Source: Gemmatimonadota bacterium
Lineage (GTDB): Bacteria; Gemmatimonadota; Gemmatimonadetes; Gemmatimonadales; GWC2-71-9
DNA length: 63,543 nucleotides
Reading direction: 5' to 3'
Assembly (NCBI GenBank): GCA_033763675.1
Contig: JANRJZ010000178.1
Coordinates: 1-63,543 of the forward strand
Shown here: positions 1 through 58,416 of the stretch, one piece after another
Position numbering within the stretch: the stretch's first letter is position 1
How the letters are laid out: every line of letters begins with the position of its first letter
Notes under the pieces: model-generated
Database searches by the model: none
The model's input: the letters and a program-made list of their open reading frames with translations, nothing else
What the model was told of the DNA's origin: nothing
Position numbers and translations under genes: made by a program

Positions 1-47
1 GCTCGGCGGCTCGGCGGCTTGGCGGCTGGCGGCTTGGCGGCTCGGCG
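1..47. repeat. Tandem octamer array (GCTCGGCG / GCTTGGCG units), truncated by the window edge
   Basis: Read directly: gctcggcg gctcggcg gcttggcg gctggcg gcttggcg gctcggcg. The unit is the reverse complement of the array at 703-777. Confidence 0.85.
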
Positions 48-116
48 CGATTTTCTTGGTCCGCGAGATGGCGAATTGATGGGGTGGCCCCGCGCCCATG
101 ATCCCAGCCTTGGGGC

Positions 117-620
117 ATGCCTGAAGCAGCTTGCCTCCCCCAGCGCCGCTCCATTCGCCTCTGGAGCTGGGATTATTCCCGCCCTGGCTGGTACTTCGTC
201 ACCATCACCACGCGGCTGGGCTGGTGGTATTTCGGGTTGAATGACGAGCGCGGATTACGACTCTCAGAACCCGGCCGCGTGGTCTCGGCAACCTGGGCCG
301 AGATGCCCGCCCGATTTCCACGGCTCCAGCTGGATGCCTGGGTGGTGATGCCGAACCACTTTCACGCCATCCTGCACCTGATTCCTGGAACTGAGGCCTC
401 TCGTCGCACCGTCGGGAGAATCATCAGCGCCTTCAAATCCCTCACCACCGTCCGCTACCTGCGCGGGATCCGGGCCTGCGGCTGGCCGCCATTCCACCGG
501 CGCCTCTGGCACCGGAATTATCACGACCGGATCCTCCACACCCCCACAGCGCTGGCCGCCACCCGCCGCTATATCGAGCAGAACCCCCAGATCCACCTGC
601 AGCGCGCCCGCCGCCAATAG
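117..620 (+). CDS. REP-associated tyrosine transposase (RAYT) / IS200-type Y1 HUH transposase
   Basis: 167-aa ORF with an HUH motif (VVMPNHFHAILH) and a C-terminal catalytic-Tyr context (LWHRNYHDRIL). Size and motif order are typical of the TnpA_REP/IS200 family. It is flanked by inverted short-repeat arrays. Confidence 0.8.
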   Translation: MPEAACLPQRRSIRLWSWDYSRPGWYFVTITTRLGWWYFGLNDERGLRLSEPGRVVSATWAEMPARFPRLQLDAWVVMPNHFHAILHLIPGTEASRRTVGRIISAFKSLTTVRYLRGIRACGWPPFHRRLWHRNYHDRILHTPTALAATRRYIEQNPQIHLQRARRQ

Positions 621-660
621 CCGCATGGGCCGCGGCTGGGCATGGCCCCCCAATAGCGGT

Positions 661-685
661 ACGGGCGACCCTTGTGGTCGCCCGT
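661..685 (+). terminator. Stem-loop downstream of the RAYT gene (possible terminator or REP-like hairpin)
   Basis: acgggcgac (661-669) pairs perfectly with gtcgcccgt (677-685) around a 7-nt loop. There is no U-tract. Confidence 0.35.
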
Positions 686-702
686 CCATGCTTCAAGCTT
701 CC

Positions 703-777
703 GCCGAGCCGCCGAGCCGCCGAGCCGCCGAGCCGCCGAGCCGCCGCGCCGCCGCGCCGCCGCGCCGCCGCGCCGCC
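703..777. repeat. Tandem octamer array: 5x GCCGAGCC followed by 4x GCCGCGCC
   Basis: Counted directly, with perfect 8-nt periodicity. It lies between the RAYT stop and the stop of the convergent gene at 777, and is inverted relative to the array at 1-47. Confidence 0.95.
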
Positions 778-1133
778 TACCCCATCACCAGTCCGAGCAG
801 CACCCCGGCCACAAGGATCCGGAGCACCCCACCGATCAGCGGCTTGACCGCCACCGCCCGGAGCGATTGCCCCCGGATCCGGCCGGGCACCTCCATCAGC
901 AGCCCCACCAGGAGGAACAACAGCACCGCCCCGCCGCTGCCGAGACTCCCGAACCAGAGCCCGGCGAACAGCGTCAGCAGCCCGGCCTCCACCAGCAGCG
1001 AGGGCCACGGCACTCCGGCCGGAGCGGCGGCAGCCGGTTCCTCGCTCGATCCCAGCCGGCGGCCCACCTCATTCCACGCCAGGAGGAACACGCCGACCGC
1101 GACGAACCCGAGCAGAACCCGGCCGAACGTCAT
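777..1133 (-). CDS. Small hydrophobic membrane protein (hypothetical)
   Basis: 118-aa ORF with about 3 predicted TM stretches (LLGFVAVGVFLLAW, LLTLFAGLWFGSL, AVLLFLLVGLL, VLLGLVMG). The ATG lies 3 nt after the stop of the upstream amidohydrolase gene (TAACCGATG). Confidence 0.5.
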   Translation of the reverse strand: MTFGRVLLGFVAVGVFLLAWNEVGRRLGSSEEPAAAAPAGVPWPSLLVEAGLLTLFAGLWFGSLGSGGAVLLFLLVGLLMEVPGRIRGQSLRAVAVKPLIGGVLRILVAGVLLGLVMG

Positions 1134-1136
1134 CGG

Positions 1137-2507
1137 TTACAGGCCGGCCTTGAGCGAGTCGGCGTTGTAGAGCTGACCCCGGACCATGACCCGCTGCACC
1201 GTCCGCGTGTTGCGGATGTCGGTGAGGGGGTTGGACCCCAGGATGAGGAGATCGGCCACCTTGCCCGGCTGGATTACTCCCAGGGAATCGGCGCCGAGGA
1301 GTTGTGCCGCGTTGCGGGTGGCGGTCTCAATGGCGTCCTGCGGCGTGAGGCCGGCGGTAACCAGCAGCTCCAGCTCGGTGTGCAGGCTCCACCCCGGCAC
1401 CAGCATCTGGTTGACGGCATCGGTCCCGGCCACGATCCGCCCGCCGGCGGCGCGGAACTCCCGAAGGAAGAGGTCCTGATTGGCCCGCGAGGCACGGAAC
1501 GCGGGGTAGTCATTCGCCGTCCACCCCGCCCGGGCGATCATCTCCGGCAGGTTCCAGCGCTGCAGTTGGGCATCGGGAATGGTGCGCAGGTCGGGATGGC
1601 TGAGGATGGCGGGATCGTCGAGCCGGCTGAAGGTCTCGTGCAGCACCAGCGTCGGGATGAGAATGATCTTCCGTTCCGCGAGGGTCTGGGCCACCCGGGC
1701 CAGCGCGGCACTGTCCAGCGTGGCCCAGCTCTTCTCGAAGTAGGTCCATCCCCGGAAGAAGCCCGCCCGGTGCTCGGCGTAGAACTTGTCCGGCTTGGGG
1801 CTCGCGGCCTCCGGGACGCCACTCATGTGTTCGATGGCCGCGACACCCAGCTGGCTGGCGGTCAGCGCATCGGTGAGGCCGAGGTGCGCGGTGACCTTGA
1901 TGCTGAAGGTGTTGGCCTCGTCGAGCAGGGGCCGGAAGAGCGCCGGGGTGACATGGGTATAGGTCTTGATGTAGTCGACACCGGCCACCGCGCGCGAGTC
2001 CACCGCGCGGCGCGCGGAGTCGGGGGTGGCCACCTCGGTGGCGGACGGGTAGGTGGCGGGCGGGCCGTCGATCATGGCGCCGGCGCTGTACACTCGGGGC
2101 GCGACCAGCCCGCCCAGGTTCACCTCTTCCCGCAGCGCCAGGATCGAATCCTGTTCGCCGTGGACATCGCGCACCGTGGTGACGCCCGCGATCACGTAGC
2201 GGCTCAGCGCCCAGCGCTCCAGGTGCCCATGGCCGTCCACCAGGCCGGGGAGGATCCAGGACCCGGTCACGTCCACTTCCTCCGCGGAGGAGGGGATCTC
2301 GAACCCCTCGCGCGGGGCGACGGTCTCGATCCGTCCCTGGTGGACCACGATGACCGCGTCCCGGAGCACCGGGTCGCCGGCGCCGCTGATGACGTTGCCG
2401 CCGACCAGCGCGATCCGGTCCTTGGGCTTCGGGGTGCACGCCTGAAGCAGTGCCAGGGCCGCGAGCAGCACCCAGGCCGCCGAGCCGCTGAGCCGCCGAG
2501 CCGTCAT
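1137..2507 (-). CDS. Metal-dependent amidohydrolase family protein, lipoprotein signal
   Basis: HxH metal motif (GLVDGHGHLERW) and amidohydrolase-like length and architecture. I chose the start at MTARRLSGSAAWVLLAALALLQAC (signal peptide plus lipobox) rather than the upstream ORF extension. Confidence 0.8.
   Translation of the reverse strand: MTARRLSGSAAWVLLAALALLQACTPKPKDRIALVGGNVISGAGDPVLRDAVIVVHQGRIETVAPREGFEIPSSAEEVDVTGSWILPGLVDGHGHLERWALSRYVIAGVTTVRDVHGEQDSILALREEVNLGGLVAPRVYSAGAMIDGPPATYPSATEVATPDSARRAVDSRAVAGVDYIKTYTHVTPALFRPLLDEANTFSIKVTAHLGLTDALTASQLGVAAIEHMSGVPEAASPKPDKFYAEHRAGFFRGWTYFEKSWATLDSAALARVAQTLAERKIILIPTLVLHETFSRLDDPAILSHPDLRTIPDAQLQRWNLPEMIARAGWTANDYPAFRASRANQDLFLREFRAAGGRIVAGTDAVNQMLVPGWSLHTELELLVTAGLTPQDAIETATRNAAQLLGADSLGVIQPGKVADLLILGSNPLTDIRNTRTVQRVMVRGQLYNADSLKAGL
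2479..2502. repeat. Three octamer units (GCCGAGCC / GCTGAGCC / GCCGAGCC) inside the signal-peptide codons of the amidohydrolase
   Basis: Read directly. On the minus strand it translates as RRLSGSAA. Confidence 0.7.
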
Positions 2508-2624
2508 CGTGATCCTCCGACGTGTGATGCCGCGTGGACGCCCGAAACGTGGCCCCGCCGATGGGGGGACGCAAGTTGAGCCCGGGGCTTCCCTCCGCGC
2601 CCCCTCCGGAGCTACCCTGCGACC

Positions 2625-4088
2625 ATGGCGATCTTCCGCTGGCTGTCCCGGGCCCCCGCCACGCCCCTGATCCTGCTCAGCAACCGCGAGCCGTACGTGC
2701 ACACGCGCGGCGCGAACGGCGAGGTACTGGTATCACGGCCCGCCGGTGGCCTGACCAGCGCACTGCAGCCGGTCATGGCGGCCGCCGGGGGCACCTGGGT
2801 CGCGTGGGGCCACGGGAGCGCGGACTTCGATGTCACCGACATCGGCGATACCATCGGCCTGCCGCCAGAAGCCCCCAGCTATCGCCTCCGCCGCATGCGG
2901 CTCACCGCCGAAGAGGTCGTGGGCTACTACCTCGAAACCGCCAACCGCGCCCTCTGGCCCCTCTGCCACGCCCAGCTGCCCCGGTTCGTGTATGACGCGG
3001 CCAGCTGGCTCACCTATCGGCGGGTGAACGAGCGGTTCGCCGCCGCGGCGATCGCGGAGGCACAGGGCCGGCCGGCCACCTGCTGGGTGCAGGACTATCA
3101 CCTGGCGCTGGTGCCGGGGGTCCTGCGCCGGGTGCGGCACCTGTTCGTGCACCAGTTCTGGCACATCCCCTGGCCGGCGCCGGACATCCTCCGGGTGCTG
3201 CCGAACGCGCGCGCCCTGGTGCGCGGGCTGCTGGGCAACCACCTCCTCGGGTTCCAGACCGGGCTCGACGTTCGCAACTTCCTCGACAGCGCCCGCCGCA
3301 TGTTCCGGGATGCGGTGGTGGAGCCCACCCGGGGCCTGATCCGCTACCGCGGGCGCCGCACCCACGTGCGCGAGTTTCCCATCTCGATCGATGTCGCCAC
3401 CTTCGCCGCCCAGGCCCGGACCCCCGAGACCGAGGCCCACGCCCGCGAGCTCCGTCGCCGCATGGTGCCCGCCGGCGGCCAGCTGCTGCTCGGCGTGGAC
3501 CGGGTGGACTACACCAAGGGCATTCCGCGCCGCTTCACCGCCTTTGCGCGGCTGCTGGAAGAGCACCCCGAGCTGCACGGCCGGGTCACCCTGCTGCAGG
3601 TCGGCGTCCCCAGCCGCACCGACGTTCCGGAGTATGCCGCCTTCGAGCAGGAGGTCGCGGACCGCGCGGCCGAGGTCAATGCCCGCTTCGGTCGGGACGG
3701 CTGGCTGCCGGTGGAGCTGGTGCGGGAAAGCCTCGACCAGGCCACCCTGACGGCCTACTACCGCGCCGCCGACGTCTGCATCGTCTCGCCGCTGCAGGAC
3801 GGGATGAACCTGGTGGCCAAGGAGTATGTCGCCTGCCAGCAGGGGCGCATGGGCGTCCTGGTGCTGTCCCGGTTTGCCGGCGCGGCGCGGCAGCTCAAGG
3901 AAGCGCTGCTCATCAATCCCTACGACATCGGCGCCACCGCGGAGGCGCTGTACCGCGCCCTGACCCTGCCCGCGGAGGAGCGGGAGCGGCGCAGCATCGC
4001 GCTGCACCATCGGGTCGAGCGTCACACCATCCATGACTGGATGGGCGATATCTTTGCGGAGGTGGATCGCCTCCGGCCGCGGGCGTGA
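2625..4088 (+). CDS. otsA: Alpha,alpha-trehalose-phosphate synthase (GT20)
   Basis: 487 aa with GT20 hallmarks: LLSNREPY, GGLTSAL, YYLETANRALWPLCH, VQDYHLALVP, HIPWP, SPLQDGMNLVAKEY. Confidence 0.9.
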   Translation: MAIFRWLSRAPATPLILLSNREPYVHTRGANGEVLVSRPAGGLTSALQPVMAAAGGTWVAWGHGSADFDVTDIGDTIGLPPEAPSYRLRRMRLTAEEVVGYYLETANRALWPLCHAQLPRFVYDAASWLTYRRVNERFAAAAIAEAQGRPATCWVQDYHLALVPGVLRRVRHLFVHQFWHIPWPAPDILRVLPNARALVRGLLGNHLLGFQTGLDVRNFLDSARRMFRDAVVEPTRGLIRYRGRRTHVREFPISIDVATFAAQARTPETEAHARELRRRMVPAGGQLLLGVDRVDYTKGIPRRFTAFARLLEEHPELHGRVTLLQVGVPSRTDVPEYAAFEQEVADRAAEVNARFGRDGWLPVELVRESLDQATLTAYYRAADVCIVSPLQDGMNLVAKEYVACQQGRMGVLVLSRFAGAARQLKEALLINPYDIGATAEALYRALTLPAEERERRSIALHHRVERHTIHDWMGDIFAEVDRLRPRA

Positions 4089-4918
4089 CCCATCCCCTTG
4101 GCCGGGGGCCGGCGGCGCGGCGGGCCTTCCAGGGCCTGGTCCGGGCCGAGCGGCCGCTGCTCTTTCTTGACCTCGACGGGACCCTGGCGCCGCTGCAGGA
4201 GAATCCGGATCGCGCGCGCGTCCCCGCCGCCACCCGGCGCACCATCGCCGCGCTCCGCCGGACCGGCGCCGGGGTGGTCCTGGTCTCGGGCCGCTCGGCC
4301 CGGGCCGTGGCCCGCATCAGCGGCACGCCGGTGGATGCCATTCTCGGCGATCACGGCGCGCGACTGCTCCAGGGTGGCCGGCTCCAGCCCTGGCTCCCCG
4401 CCGACCGCGCCCGGCTGCGGCGAGCGGCCCGGGCGGTGGCGCAGTTCCTCGCCGGTCGGCGCGGAATCTGGCTGGAGCGGAAGGACCGGTCGCTGGCCAT
4501 CCACCTCCGGCTGCCCGGCGGGCATGCGCACCGGACGGTGGGGAACGTGGCCGCGCTCCTCCGGCGGATGGGGCTCCGGGTGCTGGCTGGCAACCGGGTG
4601 CTGGACGCCCAGCTCCCGGGGGTGAACAAGGGTGCCGCAGTGCGCCGCTGGCTCGGGCGCGGAAAGCAGGATGCCGTGCTCTACGCCGGCGACGACACCA
4701 CCGATCAGGACGCCTTTCTCGCGCTCAGGCCGGGGGCCGTGACCATCGCCATCGGCCGGCGGGTGAAGGGGGCGGCCTTCGCCACCCGGAACCCCGCCAC
4801 CTTCGCCGCCTGGCTTGGGGGCCTCGCCCGGGCGCGCGCCGCCGTACGGGCGGGCCTTGTGCCCGCCCGTGCCGGCTTGGGCGCGCGCCGGGCCCCCCGG
4901 CGAGGGGCTGAAGGATGA
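4085..4918 (+). CDS. otsB: Trehalose-phosphatase (HAD-IIB)
   Basis: HAD motif I LLFLDLDGTLAP, a later GDHGA, KG (VNKGAAV) and the GDDTTDQDAF motif. GTGA overlap with the otsA stop. The exact start is uncertain. Confidence 0.8.
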   Translation: MTHPLGRGPAARRAFQGLVRAERPLLFLDLDGTLAPLQENPDRARVPAATRRTIAALRRTGAGVVLVSGRSARAVARISGTPVDAILGDHGARLLQGGRLQPWLPADRARLRRAARAVAQFLAGRRGIWLERKDRSLAIHLRLPGGHAHRTVGNVAALLRRMGLRVLAGNRVLDAQLPGVNKGAAVRRWLGRGKQDAVLYAGDDTTDQDAFLALRPGAVTIAIGRRVKGAAFATRNPATFAAWLGGLARARAAVRAGLVPARAGLGARRAPRRGAEG

Positions 4919-6699: not shown

Positions 6700-6705
6700 C
6701 CGGCC

Positions 6706-7146
6706 CTATTTGAGGAAGATGCCCAGCCCGAAGTAACAGGGCTCCTCCTTGCACGCCGCCATCTCCACGTTGATGGTGTACCGCCCCGCCTTCTCCGGCT
6801 GCAGGGACAGGACCGGCGTGTCGTCGTCCTTCCGGTCCTTGTCCACCGTGTTGCCGTCGGCGTCCTTGATCAGCAGGTCGACGTTGCTGCAGTCGTTGTC
6901 GCAGGCACCCGTGATGATGTAGCTCTTGCCCTTGTCGAAGTAGAACGTCCAGCTGTCGGTCCCGCCCTTGTTCAGCCGCCCCATCAGGTAGTTCTGCAGG
7001 TACCAGTCGTCGTCATTCTTGGAGATGGTCTTCCAGTGCTCCTGCAGCTGGTCCCAGACCTGGACGGCATAGCTCTGGGCGGTGAGCCGCTCCGGCGCGA
7101 GGCCAAGCAGCAGGAGGCAGGCGGGGACCAGCAGGCGGCTGGACAT
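6706..7146 (-). CDS. Secreted hypothetical protein (Cys-containing, Asp/Lys-rich)
   Basis: 146-aa ORF with an N-terminal signal (LLVPACLLLLGLAPERLTAQS). Coding-like composition, and visibly less GC-rich than its neighbours. Confidence 0.55.
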   Translation of the reverse strand: MSSRLLVPACLLLLGLAPERLTAQSYAVQVWDQLQEHWKTISKNDDDWYLQNYLMGRLNKGGTDSWTFYFDKGKSYIITGACDNDCSNVDLLIKDADGNTVDKDRKDDDTPVLSLQPEKAGRYTINVEMAACKEEPCYFGLGIFLK

Positions 7147-7181
7147 GGGGGCGTGTTCCTTTCGGGGTGCCCGGGTGAGGG

Positions 7182-7676: not shown

Positions 7677-7843
7677 GAGCGAGTCTCCGGGAGGGGATGG
7701 CTCGGGACCCCGGCCGGGATGACCGGAGCAACTCCCTGTGCCATCGTCGGATAGGCCAGCGCCACGATTTGTGGAGTGCCTACCTGCGCGGTACCTTGCA
7801 CCTGCGGGCTCACCCCCCTCTCACCCAGGTCTCACCGCTCAGC

Positions 7844-10654: not shown

Positions 10655-10667
10655 GCCGGCGGGAACG

Positions 10668-44318: not shown

Positions 44319-44359
44319 TCCCCGGGGGTACTGGGGTCGTGACCCGCAACCACGCGCAA

Positions 44360-45525: not shown

Positions 45526-45556
45526 CGCTTCAACCTTGATAACCGTCGCCGTGAGC

Positions 45557-46856: not shown

Positions 46857-46862
46857 GGGCGA

Positions 46863-48002: not shown

Positions 48003-48058
48003 GGCGATCAGGCAATCGGGCGATTGAGTCGCGGCCCAATCGCCCAATCGCCCAATCG
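48003..48058. repeat. Inverted pair of CGCCCAAT-family arrays between convergent genes
   Basis: ggcgatca ggcaatcg ggcgattg / agtcgcgg / cccaatcg cccaatcg cccaatcg. It fills the whole gap between the stops at 48002 and 48060. Confidence 0.9.
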
Positions 48059-51768: not shown

Positions 51769-54700
51769 ACATCGCCGAGCTCTTCATCAAGCGCCCGGTC
51801 ATGACCACCTTGGTCATGGCCGGGATTCTCGTCTTCGGGGTGGCCGCGTATTTCAAGTTGCCGGTGAGTGACCTGCCCTCCATCGACTATCCCACGATCT
51901 CGGTCAATGCCAGCCTCCCCGGCGCCAGCCCCGAGACCATGGCCAGCTCGGTGGCCACGCCCCTGGAGCGGCAGTTCTCCACCATCGCCGGGCTCGACGC
52001 CCTCACCAGCACCAGCGGGCAGGGGAACGTCTCCATCACCCTGCAATTCACCCTGGACCGGGACATCGACGCGGCGGCGGCGGACGTGCAGGCGGCGATC
52101 GCGCAGACGCTGCGGCAGCTGCCGCAGAACATGGTGCCGCCCAGCTATTCCAAGGTGGACCCGTCGCAGTCGCCGGTGCTGTTCTTCGCGCTGACCTCGG
52201 CCAGCCTGCCGCTCTCCACGCTGGATGAATACGGCCAGACCCTCATCAGCCAGCGGCTCTCCACGGTGGAGGGAGTGGCGCAGGTGGCGGTGTACGGCAG
52301 CCAGAAGTACGCGGTGCGGATCCAGCTCGACCCGCAGGCGCTCGCGGCCCGGAAGATCGGGCTGGACGAGGTCTCGCGGGCCATCAGTACCGGCAACGTG
52401 AACCTGCCATCGGGGATCCTCTGGGGCACCGACCGGGCCTACGCGGTGGAGGCGGAGGGCCAGCTGGAGAGCGCGGCGGCCTTCCGGCCGCTGATCGTGG
52501 CCATGCGGGACGGCGCGCCTGTCCGCCTGGGCGACCTGGGCCGGGTCATTGACAGCGTGCAGGAGACCAAGGCGGCGAGCTGGTTCAACGGCACCCGCGC
52601 CATCGTGCTCGCGATCCAGCGCCAGCCCGGCACCAACACGGTGGCGGTGGCGGAGCGGGTCAAGGCGGCGATGGTCCAGATCCAGCGCCAGCTCCCCGCC
52701 GCGGTCAAGGTGGAGACCCTGTACGACCGCTCGGAGACGATCCAGGAGTCGCTGCACGAGGTGAAGTTCACCCTCTACCTGACGCTCTGCCTCGTGGTGC
52801 TGACGATCTTCCTCTTCCTCCGGAACATCTCCGCCACGGTGATCCCGAGCCTGGCCCTGCCGATGTCGCTGGTGGGCACCTTCGCCGTGATGTACCTGCT
52901 GGGCTACAGCCTCGACAACCTGTCGCTGATGGCGCTCACCCTCTCCGTGGGCTTCGTGGTGGATGATGCCATCGTGATGCTGGAGAACATCGTCCGCCAC
53001 ATGGAGATGGGGAAATCGGCGCGGCAGGCGGCCTTCGACGGCGCCCGCGAGATCGGCTTCACGATCATCTCGATGACGATTTCCCTGGTGGCGGTGTTCA
53101 TCCCCCTGGTGTTCATGGGCGGGCTGATCGGGCGGCTGTTCCGCGAGTTCGCGGTGACCATCGGCGTGGCCATTCTGGTCTCCGGCTTCGTGTCACTCAC
53201 GCTCACGCCGATGCTGGGCAGCCGGTTCCTCAAGCCGGGCCGCCACGGCGGGCAGGGAAGGTTCTACCTCGCCACCGAGCGAGCGTACGACGGCGCCCTG
53301 CAGCTCTACCTCCGCTCCCTCGGCTGGGTCATGGCCCGGCGGGGCGCGGCGCTGAGTGCCTCGCTGCTGATCCTGGTGGCCACGGTGTGGCTGGCGATCA
53401 TCATCCCCAAGGGCTTCCTGCCGAGCGAGGACACCGCCCAGCTCCGCGGCACCACCGAGGCCGCGGAAGGAACCAGCTTCGACGCCATGCTCCGGCTGCA
53501 GCAGCAGGCCGCCGCCATCGTGCAGGCGGACAGCAACGTGGCCGGTTTCATGTCCGCGGTGGGTTCCGGCGGCCGCGGCAGCAACATCAACCAGGGGCGG
53601 TTCTTCATTCACCTCAAGCCGCGCCGGGAGCGGGAGTTCTCCGCCGATGAGGTGGCGCGGAGCCTCTCCGGCAAGATGTCCGCGGTGCCGGGGATGAAGG
53701 TCTACTTCACCAACCCGCCGCCCATCTCCATCGGGGGCCGCAGCACCAAGAGCCTGTACCAGTACACCATCCAGGGACCGGACATCCAGGAGCTGTACGC
53801 CACCGCCGCGAAGCTCGAGGCGGCACTGCGTGCCCTCCCTGAAGTGCGGGACGTCACCAGCGACCTGCAGATCAGGAACCCCGAGGTACGGGTGAAGATC
53901 GACCGGGAGCGCACCGCCGCCTACGGCCTCACGGTGCAGGCGGTGGAGCAGGCGCTGTACGACGCCTACGGTGCCCGCCAGGTCTCCACCATTTACACCG
54001 CCACCAACCAGTACTGGGTGATCCTGGAGCTGCTGCCGGAGTACCAGCGGGACCTCGGGGCACTGAGCCTCCTCGGCCTCCGCGCCACTAACGGCTCGCT
54101 GGTACCGCTCACCGCCCTCGCGGACGTCACCCCCGACGTCGGTCCCCTCACCGTGAACCACTCGGGACAGCTCCCCTCGGTGACGCTCTCCTTTGACGTG
54201 GTGCCGGGGGTCTCGATCGGGCAGGCGGTGGCGGCAGTGGAGGCCGCCGCGGAGCCACTTCTCCCCGGCGCCGTCACCGCCCGCTTCGCGGGCACGGCCC
54301 AGGCGTTCCAGCAGTCGCAGCAGGGGCTGCTGATCCTGCTGGTCCTCGCCATCGTGGTGATCTACATCGTGCTCGGCATCCTGTACGAGAGCTTCATCCA
54401 CCCGCTCACGATTCTCTCGGGGCTGCCCTTCGCCGGGTTCGGCGCGCTGGTGACGCTGCTCATCGCCGGGCTGGACCTCAGCGTCTATGCCTTCGTGGGA
54501 ATCATCATGCTGGTGGGGCTGGTCAAGAAGAACGCCATCATGATGCTCGATTTCGCCATCGATGCCGAGCGGAAGGATGGGAAGCCGCCCGAAGCGGCCA
54601 TCCTCGAGGCGGCCCGGGTCCGCTTCCGCCCCATCATGATGACCACCTTCGCCGCGCTGCTCGGCACCCTGCCGATCGCCTTCGCCACCGGCACCGGGGC

Positions 54701-54872
54701 CGAGGCCCGGCGACCCCTGGGCCTGGCCGTCGTGGGCGGGCTGCTGTTCTCACAGTTCGTGACGCTGTACGTGACGCCGGTGATCTACGTGGCGCTGGAT
54801 CGGTTGGGGGAGCGGTGGCGGGCCCGGGAAGCTGCGACGGTATCGACGGTACCGACGGTACAACAATCGTAA
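51765..54872 (+). CDS. RND multidrug efflux permease (AcrB/MexB-like, HAE1)
   Basis: 1035 aa. MNIAELFIKRPVMTTLVMAGILVFG, VGFVVDDAIVMLENI, and a C-terminal half with GIIMLVGLVKKNAIMMLDFA. Confidence 0.92.
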   Translation: MNIAELFIKRPVMTTLVMAGILVFGVAAYFKLPVSDLPSIDYPTISVNASLPGASPETMASSVATPLERQFSTIAGLDALTSTSGQGNVSITLQFTLDRDIDAAAADVQAAIAQTLRQLPQNMVPPSYSKVDPSQSPVLFFALTSASLPLSTLDEYGQTLISQRLSTVEGVAQVAVYGSQKYAVRIQLDPQALAARKIGLDEVSRAISTGNVNLPSGILWGTDRAYAVEAEGQLESAAAFRPLIVAMRDGAPVRLGDLGRVIDSVQETKAASWFNGTRAIVLAIQRQPGTNTVAVAERVKAAMVQIQRQLPAAVKVETLYDRSETIQESLHEVKFTLYLTLCLVVLTIFLFLRNISATVIPSLALPMSLVGTFAVMYLLGYSLDNLSLMALTLSVGFVVDDAIVMLENIVRHMEMGKSARQAAFDGAREIGFTIISMTISLVAVFIPLVFMGGLIGRLFREFAVTIGVAILVSGFVSLTLTPMLGSRFLKPGRHGGQGRFYLATERAYDGALQLYLRSLGWVMARRGAALSASLLILVATVWLAIIIPKGFLPSEDTAQLRGTTEAAEGTSFDAMLRLQQQAAAIVQADSNVAGFMSAVGSGGRGSNINQGRFFIHLKPRREREFSADEVARSLSGKMSAVPGMKVYFTNPPPISIGGRSTKSLYQYTIQGPDIQELYATAAKLEAALRALPEVRDVTSDLQIRNPEVRVKIDRERTAAYGLTVQAVEQALYDAYGARQVSTIYTATNQYWVILELLPEYQRDLGALSLLGLRATNGSLVPLTALADVTPDVGPLTVNHSGQLPSVTLSFDVVPGVSIGQAVAAVEAAAEPLLPGAVTARFAGTAQAFQQSQQGLLILLVLAIVVIYIVLGILYESFIHPLTILSGLPFAGFGALVTLLIAGLDLSVYAFVGIIMLVGLVKKNAIMMLDFAIDAERKDGKPPEAAILEAARVRFRPIMMTTFAALLGTLPIAFATGTGAEARRPLGLAVVGGLLFSQFVTLYVTPVIYVALDRLGERWRAREAATVSTVPTVQQS
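54835..54861. repeat. 3x nonamer CGACGGTA(T/C) array forming the last codons of the RND gene
   Basis: cgacggtat cgacggtac cgacggtac. It translates as ATVSTVPTV. It is inverted relative to 54918-54951. Confidence 0.85.
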
Positions 54873-54877
54873 AGCGA

Positions 54878-54901
54878 CCCTCCGGACTGAATTCCGGAGG
54901 G
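54878..54901. terminator. Perfect 9-bp hairpin between convergent genes (putative bidirectional terminator)
   Basis: ccctccgga / ctgaat / tccggaggg. It lies between the stops at 54872 and 54952. There is no clear U-tract. Confidence 0.55.
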
Positions 54902-54917
54902 CCGCCTGTCCACCAAC

Positions 54918-54951
54918 GCTACCGTCGTTACCGTCGCTACCATCGGTACCG
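54918..54951. repeat. About 4x nonamer G(C/T)TACCGTC array, the inverse of 54835-54861
   Basis: gctaccgtc gttaccgtc gctaccatc ggtaccgc. It abuts the stop codon of the minus-strand HEAT gene. Confidence 0.85.
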
Positions 54952-55701
54952 CTAGTTCTCCGTCAAAATCTCCTCAAACAACGCCACCGCCTCCGGCGCC
55001 TCGCTCTGCCCCAGCCAGAAGAGCGCAGTCTTCCGGAGCTTGGGATCCTGGCTGGTGCGCGCCACCCGGATGAGGGCGGGGATCCCCTCCTCCCGGGGCC
55101 GCTGGGACAGCGCGAAGATCGCCGACTCCCGCACCTCCCGGTCGCCGTTGTCATCCTGCACGATCGAGTCCAGCCCCTTCGTGGCTGCCTCGCCCGCCGC
55201 CTGGCCCAGCCAGAAGATCGCGCTGCGCCTGGTCTTCTGCGACACCCGGTCGTTGCGCACGATGCGGAGCAGCCCCGGCCAGGTCTCCACCCCCTCGGCC
55301 AGCGTGGCCGGGAAGATCGCGTCCTCGCTTGCCCCCTCGTTCCTCCCGGCCAGGCCGAAGAGCCAGTCCGCTGCCTCTTTCGCGTCCACCGCGCCGAGGT
55401 CCTGGGTGGCGGTGCCGCGCCACTGGCCGCCGACGTAGGCGCGGAGGGCGGTGGAGCGGCCACCGGCCCGGTCAATCACCACCCGCACCGGCCCCGATTC
55501 GCAGTCATGCTCCCACTCCCCGCGTGAGCCCTTCGAGTAGGTGCTGATGTTGCCCCGGCCGTTGCCGCACACCCCCTCCCGGGCGGGGAACGACAGCCGC
55601 ACCGTCCCATCCTTCACCCGGTCGATCCTCGAGGCCAGCGACTGCCCCTCCAGCATGGGGGCGGCGATGAGCGCCAGCCCCGCCAGCAGTGCGATGCGCA
55701 T
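54952..55701 (-). CDS. HEAT-repeat protein, secreted
   Basis: Signal peptide. The C-terminal half carries repeated (S/K)AIFWLGQ / SAIFALSQ HEAT-like (PBS-lyase type) units. Confidence 0.7.
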   Translation of the reverse strand: MRIALLAGLALIAAPMLEGQSLASRIDRVKDGTVRLSFPAREGVCGNGRGNISTYSKGSRGEWEHDCESGPVRVVIDRAGGRSTALRAYVGGQWRGTATQDLGAVDAKEAADWLFGLAGRNEGASEDAIFPATLAEGVETWPGLLRIVRNDRVSQKTRRSAIFWLGQAAGEAATKGLDSIVQDDNGDREVRESAIFALSQRPREEGIPALIRVARTSQDPKLRKTALFWLGQSEAPEAVALFEEILTEN

Positions 55702-55709
55702 GGTGTCCC

Positions 55710-57077
55710 CTACTCGTTGAGAAGTTCTTCGATGAGCGCGGCGGCACGCGGGTCCCGCGACTGGCCCAGCCAGAACACCGCCTTCTTGCGCATGTCAGGA
55801 TCCTTGTCCTTCCGGGCGATCTCGATCATCTGGTCCACCGCCCCGGGCCCCTTCACCTGGGACAGGGCGAAGATCACCTGCTCCTTGAGCTCCCGCTCCT
55901 GCAGCGTGGAGTAGAGCCGGCCCAGCTCCTCGGCGCTGGTCCCCCCCTGGCCGGACCAGAAGATCGCCTTCTTCCGCACCTCGACCGACTGCTTCGGATC
56001 CTGTGCCACCTCCAGCAGCCAGCGCCGGTCCTCGGGCTTCCCCGACTGCGCGATCCCGAAGATCACCTTGTCCTTGAGTTCGTCGTCGTCGAGGCGGGCG
56101 TAGAGGCCGCGCAGGTACTCCCCGCCGCCGCTCTTCGACTGGCCCAGCCAGAAGATGGCGTTGCTCCGGATCTCCCGCGGGACATCCTTCCGCTCGGCGA
56201 TGGCGCGGAGCGCCTGGGCCGCGCGGGGGTCGCGCTGCTGCGACAGGGCGAACACCGCCTTCTCCTGCAGCCCCGGGTCGGTGCTCCGCTGCGCAATCGA
56301 ATCCAGCGCCGCCACCGCCCGCGGGGTCGAGACCTGCGACAGCCAGAACACCGCCTGCTCCCGCACCTCGGGGTCGGGGTCGTGCCGCGCGGTGCTGATG
56401 AGGATCTCCTCGGTCTGCGGCCCCGCCTTCTGGGCCACCAGGAAGACCGCCTTCCGCCGGAGGCAGACGGAGCCCTCGTCCCGGCGCGCCAGCACCCGGG
56501 AGAGCAGCGGCAGCGCGCGCTCCGCGTCCATCTGCAGCACCGCGTTGAGCGCCGCGGCCTTCACGTCGGAATCCTCGTTGCAGTCGCCGCCGGCGCGGCC
56601 CCCCTCCCGGCCGGCATCCGTGGCCTCGATGGTCACCGCCTCCGCGGCCACGGGGTCGCCGCCGTGGGCCAGCGCCCCGCGGATGCGGGTGGCGAGGGTC
56701 TCGGCGTCCCCCATCGTCGCCGCCCTCGGGAAGCGGCGCCTCTGGTCCTCCAGCCGTGCCAGGGCGGTCTTGAGCTCGGCGTCCCCGCCGATCCGGTATC
56801 GGGCGAACGCCTCCCAGTAGAGCGCATCCGCCGCGTAGCCCGACCGCGGGTAGCGGCGGGTCAGCTCCGCGAAGCGCTCGACGGCGGCGCGGTACTGCTC
56901 GCGGCGGAGCGCCTCCCGCGCCATCCGGTAGAGGGAATCGCCGGGGTCGGACTGCAGCCAGGGCGCCGGCGGCTGGTCCGCGATCGCCACCGTGGCGCGC
57001 GCCTGCTGGAACAGCTGCGGCACCTCGATGGAGGAGAAGGTCAGGGCGGCCGTCAGGCCGAGCATCAGGGCGCGCAT
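55710..57077 (-). CDS. HEAT-repeat protein with an N-terminal TPR/YbgF-like region, secreted
   Basis: At least 7 repeats of the K.(A/V)(I/V)F(W/A)L(G/S)Q type (KAVFLVAQ, QAVFWLSQ, KAVFALSQ, NAIFWLGQ, KVIFGIAQ, KAIFWSGQ, QVIFALSQ, KAVFWLGQ). The ATG overlaps the anti-sigma stop (TAATG). Confidence 0.75.
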   Translation of the reverse strand: MRALMLGLTAALTFSSIEVPQLFQQARATVAIADQPPAPWLQSDPGDSLYRMAREALRREQYRAAVERFAELTRRYPRSGYAADALYWEAFARYRIGGDAELKTALARLEDQRRRFPRAATMGDAETLATRIRGALAHGGDPVAAEAVTIEATDAGREGGRAGGDCNEDSDVKAAALNAVLQMDAERALPLLSRVLARRDEGSVCLRRKAVFLVAQKAGPQTEEILISTARHDPDPEVREQAVFWLSQVSTPRAVAALDSIAQRSTDPGLQEKAVFALSQQRDPRAAQALRAIAERKDVPREIRSNAIFWLGQSKSGGGEYLRGLYARLDDDELKDKVIFGIAQSGKPEDRRWLLEVAQDPKQSVEVRKKAIFWSGQGGTSAEELGRLYSTLQERELKEQVIFALSQVKGPGAVDQMIEIARKDKDPDMRKKAVFWLGQSRDPRAAALIEELLNE

Positions 57078-57733
57078 TACAGGACTCCTTGAGTGGAAGC
57101 GGGCGTGCCCCCGGCCGGTACCGCGGCGCGGAGCCGACCCAGCGTGCCGCGCTGGTCGAGCCCGTCGGTGATCAGGTTGAGGTCCTCGCGGCGCTCGCGC
57201 TGCAACTGCGCGATCTCCGCCAGCACCAGCTCGAGGTCCTCCAGCAGCGCGCGAAGCCGTACGTCTTCGGCGGCGGGGGAATCGAGCAGCAGTCGCGCGG
57301 TGCCGAGCAGCCGGCGGGCCTCACGCGACGCGGTCTCATCGGGCTGCCCGGTGCTGGCGGCCGCCCGGAAGTCGGTCAGGAACACTTCGGTCCGGCCCAG
57401 GTACTCGGCCGCCACCAGGCGGTGGGCGGTGGTGGGCGGCTCGGTGGCTCGGCGGCTCGGCGACTCGGCGGCATGGTCGCTCGGCGACGGGGGTGCGGTC
57501 ATCCGCCCCAGCCCGAAGGCCAGCGCCAGCGTCGCGGCTACGGCCAATGGGATCAGCACCCGCCCCCACCTGATCGGCATCCTCGCTACCGTCGCTACCG
57601 TCGATACCGCCGGTACCGTCGTTTTCCGCTCCATCTGAATCCGCCGCCAGATCTCCTCCCGGGGGGCCGGGGGGGGCTGGAGGCTGTCGTGTGCGAGGCG
57701 GCGGATCATGGCCTCCCGTTCGTCGTCGTTCAT
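57077..57733 (-). CDS. Anti-sigma factor (single-pass membrane protein)
   Basis: It lies immediately downstream of the ECF sigma gene. I chose the start at MNDDEREAMIRRL, with one TM (VLIPLAVAATLALAFGL). It contains two short-repeat arrays in-frame. Confidence 0.65.
   Translation of the reverse strand: MNDDEREAMIRRLAHDSLQPPPAPREEIWRRIQMERKTTVPAVSTVATVARMPIRWGRVLIPLAVAATLALAFGLGRMTAPPSPSDHAAESPSRRATEPPTTAHRLVAAEYLGRTEVFLTDFRAAASTGQPDETASREARRLLGTARLLLDSPAAEDVRLRALLEDLELVLAEIAQLQRERREDLNLITDGLDQRGTLGRLRAAVPAGGTPASTQGVL
57438..57487. repeat. GGCTCGGC-family octamer array inside the anti-sigma CDS
   Basis: ggctcggt ggctcggc ggctcggc gactcggc ggcatggtcgctcggcgac. On the minus strand it translates as SPSDHAAESPSRRATEPP. 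Confidence 0.8.
57585..57621. repeat. TACCGTC-family nonamer array inside the anti-sigma CDS
   Basis: gctaccgtc gctaccgtc gataccgcc ggtaccgtc. On the minus strand it translates as TTVPAVSTVATVA. Confidence 0.8.
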
Positions 57734-57740
57734 CGTGTCC

Positions 57741-58280
57741 TCAGGCGAAGGCGGCGAGCGCTTCGCGAAGCCGGGCCCGGGCGCGGGAGAGGCGGGCCTT
57801 GGAGGTCCCGGTCTCCACGCCGAGGAGTCGGGCAATCTCCTCGTGGGTATAGCCTTCGACATCGTGCAGCAGGAACACCATCCGGTAGTGCTCCGCCAGG
57901 TCGGCGATCGCCTCCCGCATCCGGGTGGCGAGGTCGGGGTCGGCGCGGCGCTCGGTGCGGGCGGGGTGGTGGTCCAGGAGGACCGTCTCCCGCTGGTCGT
58001 GCCGCTGCACCTTCCGGAGCCCGGAGAGGGCCACCGAGATCGCCACCGAGCCGATCCAGGTGCCGAGGGCGGCGTCACCCCGGAAGTCGGCCAGCTTCTG
58101 GAACACCCGGACGAAGGTCTCCTGGGTCCAGTCGGCGGCGCGGTCGGCGTCGCCGGCAAACCGGTACACCATCCCCCACACCCGGTCGACGTGCGCGTCA
58201 TACAGGGCGCGCTCCGCCGCCGGATCCCCGGCCAGCACTCCTGCGATGAGTTCGGCTTCGGTCACTGACGCTCCATCCAC
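57741..58280 (-). CDS. ECF-type RNA polymerase sigma-70 factor
   Basis: Region 2 (LYDAHVDRVWGMVYRF..D...A.DWTQETFVRVFQKL..F) and region 4 (YRMVFLLHDVEGYTHEEIARLLGVETGTSKARLSRAR). Confidence 0.9.
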   Translation of the reverse strand: MDGASVTEAELIAGVLAGDPAAERALYDAHVDRVWGMVYRFAGDADRAADWTQETFVRVFQKLADFRGDAALGTWIGSVAISVALSGLRKVQRHDQRETVLLDHHPARTERRADPDLATRMREAIADLAEHYRMVFLLHDVEGYTHEEIARLLGVETGTSKARLSRARARLREALAAFA

Positions 58281-58341
58281 GGCGCTGGAGTGGTGGCCTC
58301 GTTCGGGTGCTTTGACGCGGGGGGAGGGGAAAGGGTTACGG

Positions 58342-58416
58342 GGCGATTGGGCGATTCGGTGATGGGGCGATCGGACGGGGGACGAATCGCCTAATCGCCT
58401 AATCGCCCAATCGCCC
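58342..58416. repeat. Inverted pair of CGCCCAAT-family arrays in the sigma/gyrA divergent intergenic region
   Basis: ggcgattg ggcgattc ggtgatgg ggcgatcg / gacgggggacg / aatcgcct aatcgcct aatcgccc aatcgccc. Confidence 0.9.

Follow-up and report, generated by a model that had tools for sequence, protein, structure and literature searches.

The DNA analysed here (the window, 63,543 nucleotides) is one contig of G000, a 95%-complete, 3.96-Mb Gemmatimonadales MAG, and the host is a soil bacterium. Genes were called with a crude in-house caller, which leaves start-codon positions approximate, and the main relative used for comparison is G015, with flanks that are ~92% identical. A preliminary description of the window listed arrays of short tandem units in four families. 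All of these arrays are found again by Tandem Repeats Finder (TRF) and direct reading, and TRF adds one that had been missed, (CCCGTCGG)3 at 36348-36371; after merging of the list the window has 17 arrays. Of the four families, family 1 covers the arrays that begin at 1, 701, 2476, 37089 and 57435, family 2 those at 15716, 38720, 48003 and 58341, family 3 those at 45483, 54835 (with 54917) and 57583, and family 4 those at 43174 and 45663. They are given on the plus strand, except for one minus-strand array at 2476-2503.

The contig starts with a G-rich arm, (GCTCGGCG)n (1-47; TRF). Since the G000 copy of the gene that is its left-hand neighbour in G015 ends at base 1 of contig C143, the assembly break probably fell inside this array. 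It is the left arm of a plus-strand gene for a RAYT-like HUH/Tyr transposase (117-620), the cargo between two family 1 arms. This gene matches NCBIfam REP_Tyr_transpos (E 2.8e-13, 50 bits, under the cut-off of 80) and, weakly, Pfam Y1_Tnp; it has one copy in the genome and is missing from the orthologous gap of G015. Adjoining it, a REP-like hairpin, GGGCGACC-cttgt-GGTCGCCC, can be read directly at 663-685, and positions 647-687 match other G015 contigs. The right arm is C-rich, with (CCGCCGAG)5 grading into (CCGCCGCG)4 (701-777; TRF and direct reading), and runs up to the CTA stop of gene 777-1133 on the minus strand. It has 9.6 units here and ~2 units at the same place in G015.

Short arrays embedded in coding sequence are conserved between the two genomes. 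The array at 2476-2503 (MTARRLSGSAAW...) lies in the signal-peptide codons of an amidohydrolase gene (Pfam match) and differs in G015 by point substitutions only, with its copy number kept. The AATCGCCC-type array at 15716-15756, in a coding linker (NESPNRPSAQSP) of ORF 14200-16869, aligns with G015 without gaps, and the added array at 36348-36371, inside the first RND gene, is identical there. The C-rich array (ATCGCCCA)n at 38720-38755 (TRF) forms the last codons of RND-1, directly before the GTG start of RND-2 (38756), and is also conserved. The AcrB-like RND gene 35622-38759 (Pfam ACR_tran over residues 4-1020) further carries an in-frame insert at ~residues 490-513, a G->C pair (GGCTCGGC)n/(GCCGAGCC)n (37089-37161) with an RNA fold of -67.3 kcal/mol (z -8.1); at this site G015 has (GGGGAAC)n/(GTTCCCN)n, 9 nt shorter.

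Two degenerate G-rich arrays each follow a copy of the RND-2 3' end, the first (GGCGGTAG/GGGCGGGA...) at 43174-43236 and the second (GGCGGTAG/GGCGGTAA...) at 45663-45722. A short 9-mer G->C pair, (GCGACGGTA)n/TACCGTCGC (45483-45525; TRF; -22.8 kcal/mol, z -2.8), stands just past the stop of ORF 44240-45484. According to the preliminary description, several arrays occupy exactly the space from one convergent stop codon to the other. This is the case for the G->C pair (GGCGATYR)n/(CCAATCGC)n at 48003-48058 (-32.1 kcal/mol, z -5.5), which extends from a TAA (48000-48002) to the CTA of a minus-strand gene (48060); in G015 this hairpin lies immediately 3' of the RND-2 stop, without the 6.2-kb cassette. 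At 54835-54951 the statement holds on the right side only: the G arm (CGACGGTAN)3 (54835-54861; TRF) overlaps the final codons of RND gene 51765-54872, while the C arm (CGCTACCGT)n (54917-54951; TRF) abuts the stop of a minus-strand HEAT-repeat gene (54952-55701; Pfam). Between these two 9-mer arms a core hairpin, CCCTCCGGA...TCCGGAGGG (54874-54905), folds at -23.6 kcal/mol (z -4.5), and G015 has CACGAAGNN/CTTCGTGNN 9-mers at the C-arm site instead. Inside the minus-strand ORF 57077-57733 the top strand carries a G-rich array (GGCGGCTC)n at 57435-57488, where G015 is non-repetitive, and a C-rich 9-mer array (TCGCTACCG)n at 57583-57621, where G015 has (CCCGTCGT)n. The last pair, (GGGCGATT)n/(AATCGCCY)n at 58341-58415 in the gap 58265-58584, folds at -58.4 kcal/mol (z -9.2) and corresponds to a shorter GGGCGGTC-type stretch in G015.

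A genome-wide population of polar arrays

The arrays belong to a population of polar tandem repeats, with 7-9 nt per unit, that extends over the whole genome and is specific to the lineage. Exact arrays of at least three copies number 297 at period 8, against 23, 22 and 28 at periods 5 to 7 and 13, 1, 1, 0, 0, 1 and 0 at periods 9 to 15. The window itself contains five of period 8, with periods 5-7 and 9-12 having none, and 100 third-order Markov simulations of the window gave a mean of 0.00 period-8 arrays and a maximum of 0. The abundance is thus far beyond chance, as had been claimed, and the tandem excess, specific to period 8, is decisive. Array loci with 7-9-nt units number ~560 and make up 0.75% of the DNA; one octamer recurs at ~100 loci. 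The four families do not stand as independent entities: unit families in the genome number more than 15, and families 1, 2 and 4 are one mutational continuum, since single arrays contain the single-base unit steps CGGCGGCT - CGGCGGTT - GGGCGGTT - GGGCGATT - AGGCGATT.

The siting at gene boundaries, with a bias towards 3' ends, is borne out in the whole genome. Intergenic arrays make up 69% (~10% expected), with 115 in convergent gaps (5.9 expected), 240 in co-directional gaps (36 expected) and 45 in divergent gaps (16 expected). The arrays sit in DNA that tolerates them, namely intergenic gaps, protein linkers and gene termini. The preliminary description was incomplete in that it did not notice their strict strand polarity, nor the link of unit families to small-gene cassettes elsewhere in the genome. 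The G-rich strand, read 5' to 3', points away from the nearest gene, so that two arrays in one gap stand in the order G-then-C. Adjacent pairs are G->C in 102 cases and C->G in one (convergent 22:0, co-directional 41:1, divergent 6:0, intragenic 16:0). Solitary arrays follow the same rule, the sense strand being G-rich in 118 and C-rich in 19 beside a stop, and C-rich in 56 and G-rich in 9 beside a start, a compliance of 86% in both positions. The 5' end of the G strand lies a median of 7 nt from the adjoining gene and its 3' end a median of 81 nt from the other gene (split 194:34, p = 2e-28). In the relative G020, which has unrelated heptamer units, the polarity rule is kept (12:1).

A G->C pair gives a long hairpin where both arms carry the same unit, but in 58 of the 102 pairs the arms are non-complementary. 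The arrays had been described as mostly in inverted pairs; this applies to about half of the window loci, whereas genome-wide the figure is ~27% (TRF gives 121 of 561 loci, to which 32 solitary arrays that have a short partner are added).

Turnover among relatives

Unit or copy number differs between G000 and G015 at 37089, 54835, 57435, 57583, 58341 and 701. Length variation of the slippage type, raised in the preliminary description, is seen once, as one extra GCGACGGTA unit at 54833 in an independent metagenome (X8). Array load has a ~50-fold spread among species of one genus. PF05635 genes number 3-10 in the three array-rich genomes whose loads were measured, against 0-2 in the five array-poor ones, yet G001 has many AATCGCCC arrays and no PF05635 match.

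Small-gene cassettes and a possible origin of the arrays

All seven genes of G000 for PF05635 four-helix-bundle "23S-rRNA-IVS proteins" lie between same-family G->C arms, and the arms belong to seven different families, among them the four most abundant octamers, the most abundant 9-mer and a 7-mer. Both GxxExxY genes are bracketed in this way too, and the RAYT-like gene of the window has same-family arms at 1-47 and 701-777. These counts establish a link between unit families and cassettes. Among 11 PF05635 loci examined in relatives, each with its own unit, eight have clearly inverted arms and three are partial, decayed or unclear; one G020 cassette has the order C->G. The PF05635 protein tree follows unit type: genes with GGGCGATT arms from two species are sisters (100/97), and those with 8/9-mer arms form one clade (96/99). 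No PF05635 cassette was found in this 95%-complete MAG for the mid-abundance families ACCGCCCT (family 4 of the preliminary description), ACGACGGG and ACGGGCCG.

On balance we lean towards the reading that the window arrays are mostly cargo-less arms of stem-loop cassettes. Each main unit family also serves as the arm pair around a small gene (PF05635, GxxExxY or RAYT-like). This architecture matches a ribosomal-RNA intervening sequence, except that it is located between genes for proteins. Array length would change via slippage, as in the one case observed, and at a given site either recombination between arrays or re-invasion may swap or replace unit types. Where the arms are complementary, the transcribed stem would probably be a processing or terminator-like hairpin. 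We infer both this role at the RNA level and the direction of the link, that is, whether cassettes were the source of the arrays or arrays the landing pad. Against this reading, ~73% of the loci are solitary and have no cargo, and given the share of non-complementary pairs a hairpin cassette cannot be the present state of most loci. The loops between arms are not conserved, which disfavours copy-and-paste of a master element, and we identified no enzyme able to move or write arrays. Cassettes could also have landed in pre-existing hairpins; if gene and arms were then duplicated together, the tree would agree with unit type in that case as well.

Such landing is part of a plainer account, which we hold to be possible but unlikely, in which the arrays are microsatellite-like repeats that originate locally and lengthen there through replication slippage where selection allows. 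Either strand-asymmetric expansion or selection at gene ends would produce the polarity, and small genes would insert into pre-existing hairpins as harmless, recombination-prone landing pads. The one-unit difference between populations, the 9.6 and ~2 units at 701 in two species, the mosaic arrays with single-base steps and the non-conserved loops would fit this, as would array-free gaps, which are C-rich upstream of start codons too. So would the 6.2-kb cassette and the RAYT-like gene, each centred in a G->C pair, with an uninterrupted form of the first and a near-empty form of the second in G015. However, local seeding leaves the same octamer at ~100 loci unexplained, and point mutation and slippage cannot replace both arms at 37089 together by an unrelated family. 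The protein tree tracks unit type across species, and by our estimate (not computed) seven PF05635 genes in seven families seem improbable for abundance-weighted random landing.

It is rather improbable that the arrays are selected cis-elements, with G-rich arrays forming G-quadruplexes or R-loops and complementary pairs forming stems, and with these structures acting at gene boundaries to end or insulate transcription or to stabilise the 3' ends of mRNAs. The polarity rule is obeyed equally at starts and stops and also holds inside genes, which indicates DNA-level geometry rather than transcript-level function. No T-run follows the arms in the sequences examined, the unit sequence is not kept at orthologous sites, and the ~50-fold variation in load within one genus means that the arrays are dispensable. 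In favour of this reading, among 472 intergenic arrays a two-tetrad quadruplex motif is present on the G strand in 413 and on the C strand in 7, and a three-tetrad motif in 149 and 0, respectively. The folding energies of pairs range from -32 to -67 kcal/mol (z -5 to -9), enrichment peaks in convergent gaps, and the Xanthomonas and Nostoc units discussed below form quadruplexes in vitro (PMC4692102).

Healing of breaks, in which a telomerase-like or slipping polymerase adds G-strand repeats to 3' ends of broken DNA before rejoining and so leaves head-to-head G->C junctions like fused telomeres, fits the geometry exactly (every conserved block carries G-rich repeats at the 3' end of both strands), as well as the non-complementary pairs and same-site replacement. 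It is still very doubtful, as we know of no bacterial enzyme that does this, an RVT_1 reverse transcriptase was not found in G000 or G015, and Ku was not found in G000, G015 and G008 but is present in the array-poor G018, G011 and G006.

Mobilisation as REP/BIME-type elements by the RAYT transposase of 117-620 is already largely refuted, even though the gene between inverted family 1 arrays has a formally REPtron-like layout and the arrays share with REPs their abundance, extragenic siting, frequent inversion and 3'-end enrichment: the units are short non-palindromic 7-9-mers in tandem, not 20-40-nt palindromes, a single RAYT would have to serve more than 15 families, and this RAYT, absent from the same gap in G015, has a separate REP-like hairpin of its own (663-685). 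The arrays were rejected as REPs because array load does not track RAYT genes; G015, G001 and G018 have arrays and no RAYT, and G006 has three RAYTs and almost no arrays.

Comparison with known repeats

The window arrays fall in an already described class, that of G-rich repeats at gene ends in fixed orientation. The preliminary description likened them to the STRR sequences of cyanobacteria more than to REPs. They are indeed simple tandem repeats of the STRR/LSSR type, but two published systems are their closest analogues and make up the class to which they belong: the G-rich heptamers of Xanthomonas and Nostoc, and in Geobacter metallireducens the paired sites made of tandem repeats. As described by Rehm et al. 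(2015, PMC4692102), the G-quadruplex-forming heptamers GGGAATC (Xanthomonas) and GGGGA(C/T)T (Nostoc) occur as ~190 G-rich tandem arrays that are dispersed and over-represented in non-coding DNA, with ~70 pairs in convergent (G->C) orientation and sites that are kept while copy number varies between species. For these heptamers both the polarity and the convergent pairs have already been published, and dispersed non-coding arrays and copy-number variation at kept sites are common to both. The arrays here, in the phylum Gemmatimonadota, differ in being mainly octamers with some 7- and 9-mers, in that more than 15 families co-exist where the heptamers have one consensus, and in that the whole unit can be replaced at an orthologous site. 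What is new is that each main repeat type also forms both arms around a tiny, selfish-looking gene; Rehm et al. found no link to mobile elements.

In Geobacter metallireducens, Aklujkar et al. (2009, PMC2700814) describe three classes of paired sites (GTTGCTYN x4, TCTCCGTS(Y) x3 and MTYCTGA x5), read as IHF/HU-type regulator sites, with insertion sequences beside some pairs. The likeness, taken from the published description, lies in several families, each particular to the species, in which 7-9-mers are repeated 3-5 times in tandem, mostly at two opposite-strand sites a variable distance apart; unlike here, that paper has no polarity analysis, cargo genes or turnover data. Long simple sequence repeats, whose units measure 5-11 nt (Mrazek et al. 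2007, summarised in PMC4679880 and PMC4060949), STRR heptamers and TAACTGA repeats likewise are intergenic, lineage-sporadic, non-triplet, gene-oriented arrays with whole-unit indels between strains. STRRs, however, are restricted to cyanobacteria and 7-mers, and the TAACTGA repeats of Beggiatoaceae are A/T-rich and seldom inverted, and most of them lie a short way before a start codon, in one orientation (PMC4679880).

Intervening sequences of 23S rRNA carry an S23p (PF05635) ORF, for example in Coxiella burnetii (PMC4990558), and share with the cassettes a small four-helix-bundle gene between complementary termini that give a long stem. The cassettes here are placed between or inside protein-coding genes and not in 23S rRNA helix 25 or 45, their arms are tandem 7-9-mers instead of a unique 28-bp stem, and most arm pairs have no gene. 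A PF05635 paralogue of G000 matches the S23p structure XCC0516 (PDB 2GSC, E 3.9e-19) and also TIGR02436.

Tandem arrays in the window and the genome

The arrays that the preliminary description sorted into four families of 8-9-nt units are all present where it had placed them, both in Tandem Repeats Finder (TRF) output for the window and by direct reading. One further array, (CCCGTCGG)3 at 36348-36371, can be added, and after merging the window holds 17 arrays in 63.5 kb. The tandem excess claimed for them is also borne out: exact arrays of three or more copies number five at period 8, periods 5-7 and 9-12 have none, and 100 third-order Markov simulations of the window gave no period-8 array. 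What is in excess is tandem repetition at a single period, which removes the explanation that these words are just frequent k-mers. In the whole assembly (the Gemmatimonadota MAG GCA_033763675.1, here G000; 3.96 Mb, 314 contigs, 71% G+C), of which the window is contig C178 in full, period 8 accounts for 297 exact arrays of three or more copies, and none of the periods 5-7 and 9-15 has more than 28. With a stricter TRF threshold (minimum of 3 copies and score of 45) there are 462 period-8, 73 period-9 and 37 period-7 rows. The working threshold, set at a minimum of 2.8 copies and a score of 40, gives 687 arrays in 561 loci, or 0.75% of the genome, with a median array length of 35 nt and a maximum of 176 nt.

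More than 15 unit families occur in the genome. The commonest units are AATCGCCC (about 105 arrays), AGCCGCCG (about 92), AAACGGGG (39), ACGGCAGG (37) and AATCGCCT (29); among 9-mers ACCGTCGCT and AACGACGGT lead, and among 7-mers AACGGGG. Arrays are mosaics: family 1 (CGGCGGCT) is joined to family 2 (GGGCGATT/AGGCGATT) through CGGCGGTT and GGGCGGTT, with single-base steps within arrays, and family 4 (GGGCGGTA) joins families 1 and 2 inside individual arrays. A coding repeat at 12944-13142, with periods of 12, 15, 27 and 30 (CTTCTTGGCCGC...), is of a different kind from the octamer arrays and, read on the minus strand, probably encodes a low-complexity tail rich in Lys and Ala.

On the practical side, such arrays break short-read assemblies, extend ORF calls and create low-complexity protein segments. 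Here 35 of 628 contig ends fall in arrays, the start of the window included; the gene that lies to the left of this point in the close relative G015 has a copy in G000 that stops at base 1 of contig C143. An assembly artefact can be rejected as the source of the arrays, since they are found again in independently assembled metagenomes of four studies and in relatives assembled into few contigs.

Position, polarity and turnover

On home-made and crude gene calls (3,667 genes over 91% of the genome, with approximate start codons), on which all gene-relative figures depend, 472 of the 687 arrays are intergenic, against about 10% under random placement. Convergent gaps hold 115 arrays where 5.9 are expected, co-directional gaps 240 (36 expected) and divergent gaps 45 (16 expected). 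Two or more arrays are found at 121 of the 561 loci. Set against a MITE, with its terminal inverted repeats, conserved interior and target-site duplication, about 27% of loci have inverted arms, and the spacers between arms show no conservation. The order of the arms is almost invariant, with a G-rich array followed by a C-rich one at 102 two-array loci and the reverse at one. By setting, the ratio is 22:0 in convergent, 41:1 in co-directional and 6:0 in divergent gaps, and 16:0 inside called genes genome-wide. Solitary arrays follow the same polarity: where the nearest gene end is a stop the G-rich strand is sense (118:19), and where it is a start the G-rich strand is antisense (56:9). The 5' end of the G strand lies a median of 7 nt from the adjoining gene and its 3' end a median of 81 nt from the far side of the gap, and abutment is split 194:34 between the 5' and 3' ends (p = 2e-28). 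The rule also holds in the relative G020 (12:1), where the units are unrelated and mostly heptamers.

Base composition is at most a partial explanation of this polarity, as array-free gaps are C-rich upstream of starts and neutral after stops. In array-free intergenic regions of at least 60 nt, genome-wide, the sense strand is rich in C over the 60 nt upstream of called starts (GC skew -0.1 to -0.2). Array-free gaps of this length also have no G enrichment at -10 to -1 of the called starts, themselves approximate, which suggests little use of Shine-Dalgarno sequences. The hairpin fails as the organising principle. Arms are complementary in 44 of the 102 pairs and not in the other 58, and among 398 solitary arrays a reverse-complement partner of at least 11 nt is found in 32 on the 3' side of the G strand and in 3 on the 5' side; 366 of the 398 are counted as lacking a partner. 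The idea that the unit supplies stop codons in all three frames is right for some units (GGCGGTAG, AGGCGATT) and fails for the commonest, GGGCGATT, CGGCGGCT, GGGGAAAC and GGCAGGAC. A Chi-like protection of genes would fit the orientation; a single Chi-like recognition sequence is implausible given over 15 different units in the genome. The geometry resembles a telomere fusion and so brings up two enzymatic ideas, neither of them supported. Telomerase-like or reverse-transcriptase addition is rejected as far as MAG completeness allows, with no PF00078 match in G000, G015 and 22 other relatives, and Ku-dependent end joining has no support, Ku being missing from G000, G015 and G008, present in array-poor genomes and uncorrelated with array load.

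Comparison with G015, a member of the same genus that is 90-97% identical to the window across 761-19401 and 34354-63543, shows turnover of the arrays. Short arrays embedded in coding sequence keep their copy number there, being unchanged or differing by point substitutions only; these are at 2476-2503 (in a signal peptide), 15716-15756 (in a coding linker), 36348-36371 and 38720-38755. Non-coding and linker arrays are not conserved. The array at 701-777 has 9.6 units here and about 2 in G015. The in-frame pair at 37089-37161, inside an RND pump gene, consists of (GGCTCGGC)n/(GCCGAGCC)n here; G015 has (GGGGAAC)n/(GTTCCCN)n in its place, and the lengths differ by 9 nt. At 54835-54951 the 9-mers are CGACGGTAN here and CACGAAGNN there, and the 9-mer array at 57583-57621 is replaced by (CCCGTCGT)n. 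The repeat at 57435-57488 has no counterpart in G015, and the one at 58341-58415 is shorter there and of the GGGCGGTC type. Units are thus replaced wholesale at fixed sites. Length variation, for which the preliminary description had proposed to look, occurs as well: on an independent contig from a sludge metagenome there is one GCGACGGTA unit more at 54833, a difference of a single unit. Array load spans an approximately 50-fold range in the genus, as judged from 56-200-kb samples of seven relatives and, for G000, from the stricter TRF threshold. Per 200 kb it is 57 in G015, 54 in G020 (mostly 7-mers), about 29 in G000, 6 in G018, 5 in G011 and 1 in G006; in two other families of the order it is 8 (G025) and 2 (G033).

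Some of these changes fall within proteins. Read in frame, the hairpin-forming pair at 37089-37161 contributes about 24 residues to an AcrB-type RND pump (ORF 35622-38759), a segment that we take to be, probably, the cytoplasmic TM6-TM7 linker; the G015 pump has a different repeat-encoded peptide at the matching point, 3 residues shorter. An unannotated ORF without a Pfam hit (57077-57733, minus strand) contains a stretch conserved in G015, possibly a membrane helix, flanked on both sides by array-encoded low-complexity segments that are wholly different in G015. At 56610, in the gene at 55710-57077, G015 has a 48-nt insertion relative to the window that is not an obvious tandem array.

A larger difference is the stretch at 41765-48034, which is 6.2 kb long, lower in G+C, made of two copies of a three-gene cassette and missing from G015. 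There, the stop codon of the second RND gene (CGGCGGTAG) runs directly into a (GGCGGTAG)(GGCGATTG)n...(AATCGCCY)n hairpin, and the window has the insertion in the middle of that hairpin. At each cassette junction the last ~100 nt of the second RND gene recur together with a G-rich array (43097-43205 and 45572-45692).

The RAYT-like gene and known repeat classes

The ORF at 117-620, located between inverted family-1 arrays, is a distant RAYT by its NCBIfam REP_Tyr_transpos match (E 2.8e-13, below the curated cut-off), and it has the HUH motif NHFHAIL and a tyrosine in RRYIEQNP. The arrays do not depend on it. It is the sole copy in the genome and is missing from the orthologous gap of G015, and its best relatives elsewhere are at most 41-48% identical and from other phyla. 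Homologues are found in 12 of 25 genomes of the genus and track neither the presence nor the load of arrays: G015, G001 and G018 have arrays without any RAYT, and G006 has three RAYTs with next to no arrays. A role for the RAYT as mobiliser is rejected on this single copy and the lack of tracking. Next to the gene, at 663-685, is a REP-like palindrome, GGGCGACC-cttgt-GGTCGCCC; the surrounding 647-687 matches two other contigs of G015, a genome without a close RAYT.

The units themselves are non-palindromic tandem words of 7-9 nt, not the 20-40-nt imperfect palindromes with a GTAG-type head of REP elements (GTAG precedes only 132 of 634 arrays), and their abundance does not go with a cognate RAYT as in REP/BIME systems. 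The preliminary description was therefore right in setting them apart from classical REPs. Its likeness to the STRR sequences of cyanobacteria holds for the general type of simple tandem repeat; STRRs proper are heptamers of certain consensus types in heterocystous cyanobacteria, and the units here are mainly 8 nt long and of other sequence.

Short intergenic tandem repeats of 7-9 nt have been reported for decades from cyanobacteria, Xanthomonas, Geobacter and Beggiatoaceae, with no accepted origin or function, and there is a literature on intergenic long simple sequence repeats at large (PMC4060949, PMC4679880, PMC6749651). The closest match is the work of Rehm et al. 2015 (PMC4692102) on tandem GGGAATC in Xanthomonas, with ~190 arrays, and tandem GGGGA(C/T)T in Nostoc. 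About 70 of the arrays form pairs in convergent orientation, the G-rich strand is sense just after stops and antisense just upstream of ORFs, repeat number differs between species, a quadruplex was shown in vitro, and no association with mobile elements was reported. In a similar case, Aklujkar et al. 2009 (PMC2700814) found species-specific paired sites of 3-5 tandem 7-9-mers in Geobacter metallireducens. With the class formed by the G-rich polar arrays of the Xanthomonas and Nostoc type and by long simple sequence repeats of 5-11-nt units, G000 shares tandem arrays far above what composition predicts, over-representation in non-coding DNA, G-strand polarity with convergent pairs, and variable copy number at conserved sites between related genomes. 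Since the polarity had already been published, the class is a known one, and the arrays described here are an octamer-dominated, multi-family representative from another phylum. It is an unusually rich case, with many co-existing families, strict polarity, wholesale replacement, in-frame linker insertions and a correspondence with gene cassettes.

At the level of motifs, the G strand has a two-tetrad (G2-type) quadruplex motif in 413 of 472 intergenic arrays and a three-tetrad (G3-type) one in 149. Complementary stems fold at -32 to -67 kcal/mol. These strong hairpins have no T-run after their 3' arms and differ in this from intrinsic terminators. Public RNA runs yielded sparse Logan contigs only, from strains 95-97% identical and without direction.

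Small genes between same-family arms

The main array families bracket small genes one-to-one. G000 has seven genes of PF05635, the four-helix-bundle "23S rRNA IVS protein" family (S23p), none of them in the window itself. Each of the seven is enclosed by a G-rich and a C-rich array of one family, 50-150 nt from each arm and in either gene orientation, and the seven genes correspond to seven different arm families. The arms are GGGCGATT (family 2) on contig C182, GGCGGCTC (family 1) on C30, GCGACGGTA (family 3) on C166, GGACGGCA on C210, GGCGGTTC on C87, where the gene has an internal stop, and GGGGAAAC and GGAGAAC in two cassettes on C292. They include the four commonest octamers, the commonest 9-mer and a 7-mer. 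Both GxxExxY genes of the genome (TIGR04256, E 2.4e-38; PD-(D/E)XK-like), at C27:28318-28665 and C71:16338-16688, are likewise enclosed by inverted tandem octamer arms with units of their own, of the CACGGAAG and ACGCAAAG types. Seen from the side of the arrays, about ten complementary G-rich and C-rich pairs stand 150-800 nt apart in the genome, and six of them enclose a PF05635 gene, one a GxxExxY gene and one the RAYT-like gene of the window; the seventh PF05635 cassette (C292:24474) was missed by this distance filter. G000 is a fragmented MAG, ~95% complete, and cassettes may be under-counted because its contigs break at arrays.

Of 11 PF05635 loci in relatives, two other families of the order among them, 8 have arms that are clearly inverted; every one of the 8 has a unit of its own, and one (G020:C18) runs from C-rich to G-rich. 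The other three are partial, decayed or unclear. The G033 locus has a left arm only, and the arms of the G003 locus are not clearly complementary. In G018, an array-poor genome, the orthologue of the C30 cassette (C1:375347-375538) is a PF05635 pseudogene with an internal TGA and about two decayed GGCGACTC units per side. Array-rich genomes have more PF05635 genes (seven in G000, three in G015, ten in G020) than G006, G018, G011, G025 and G033 (0-2); G001, which has AATCGCCC arrays and no PF05635 match, is an exception. In a maximum-likelihood protein tree, PF05635 proteins group according to their arms. G000 and G002 have sister genes with GGGCGATT arms (100/97), to which the GGCGGCTC gene is closest (96/94). 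The remaining genes with 8- or 9-mer arms form one clade (96/99), GGGGAAAC and GGAGAAC pair at 100/100, and genes with 7-mer arms fall outside.

A PF05635 ORF between complementary ends that can pair into a long stem is the arrangement of IVS elements, whose stem RNase III cuts out of the transcript, and the cassettes of G000 have this arrangement. IVS elements interrupt helix 25 or 45 of 23S rRNA, and the present cassettes lie between protein-coding genes; Rfam at gathering thresholds found nothing in the window, rRNA included. The arrays of the window are probably cargo-less arms of such IVS-like stem-loop cassettes. Arms of this kind would supply homology in any register for exchange between loci, and the complementary stems may act at the RNA level. 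In the main rival reading, the arrays came first and small selfish genes then landed in the centres of hairpins. The 6.2-kb cassette at 41765-48034 and the RAYT-like gene would fit such landing, as each sits at the centre of a pair with the G-rich array first; in G015 the hairpin at the former site is uninterrupted, and the latter site is a short gap with ~2 C-rich units only. Landing sits less well with seven genes that occupy seven different families and with a protein tree that follows unit type. Duplication of a gene together with its arms would, however, give the same agreement of tree and unit without recognition, so that a causal link between cassettes and arrays is held at modest confidence.

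A more specific version, in which each PF05635 paralogue, and perhaps each GxxExxY paralogue with its nuclease fold, recognises its own 7-9-nt unit and drives the spread or maintenance of arrays made of it at gene boundaries, appears unlikely to us. If it were true, a readable protein-to-repeat specificity would mark out a family of small proteins, and the G-rich heptamer and octamer repeats of Xanthomonas, Nostoc, Geobacter and many uncultured lineages, which have long lacked an explanation, would be arms or footprints of extra-rRNA IVS-like selfish cassettes. A causal cassette link in general would make the origin of this repeat class testable by binding and strain comparison, and would provide two very common families, "four helix bundle protein" and "GxxExxY protein", with a role. 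As a lead, the solved structure closest to a PF05635 paralogue of G000 is 2GSC (XCC0516; E 3.9e-19), from Xanthomonas campestris pv. campestris, which is among the species for which Rehm et al. (PMC4692102) described GGGAATC.
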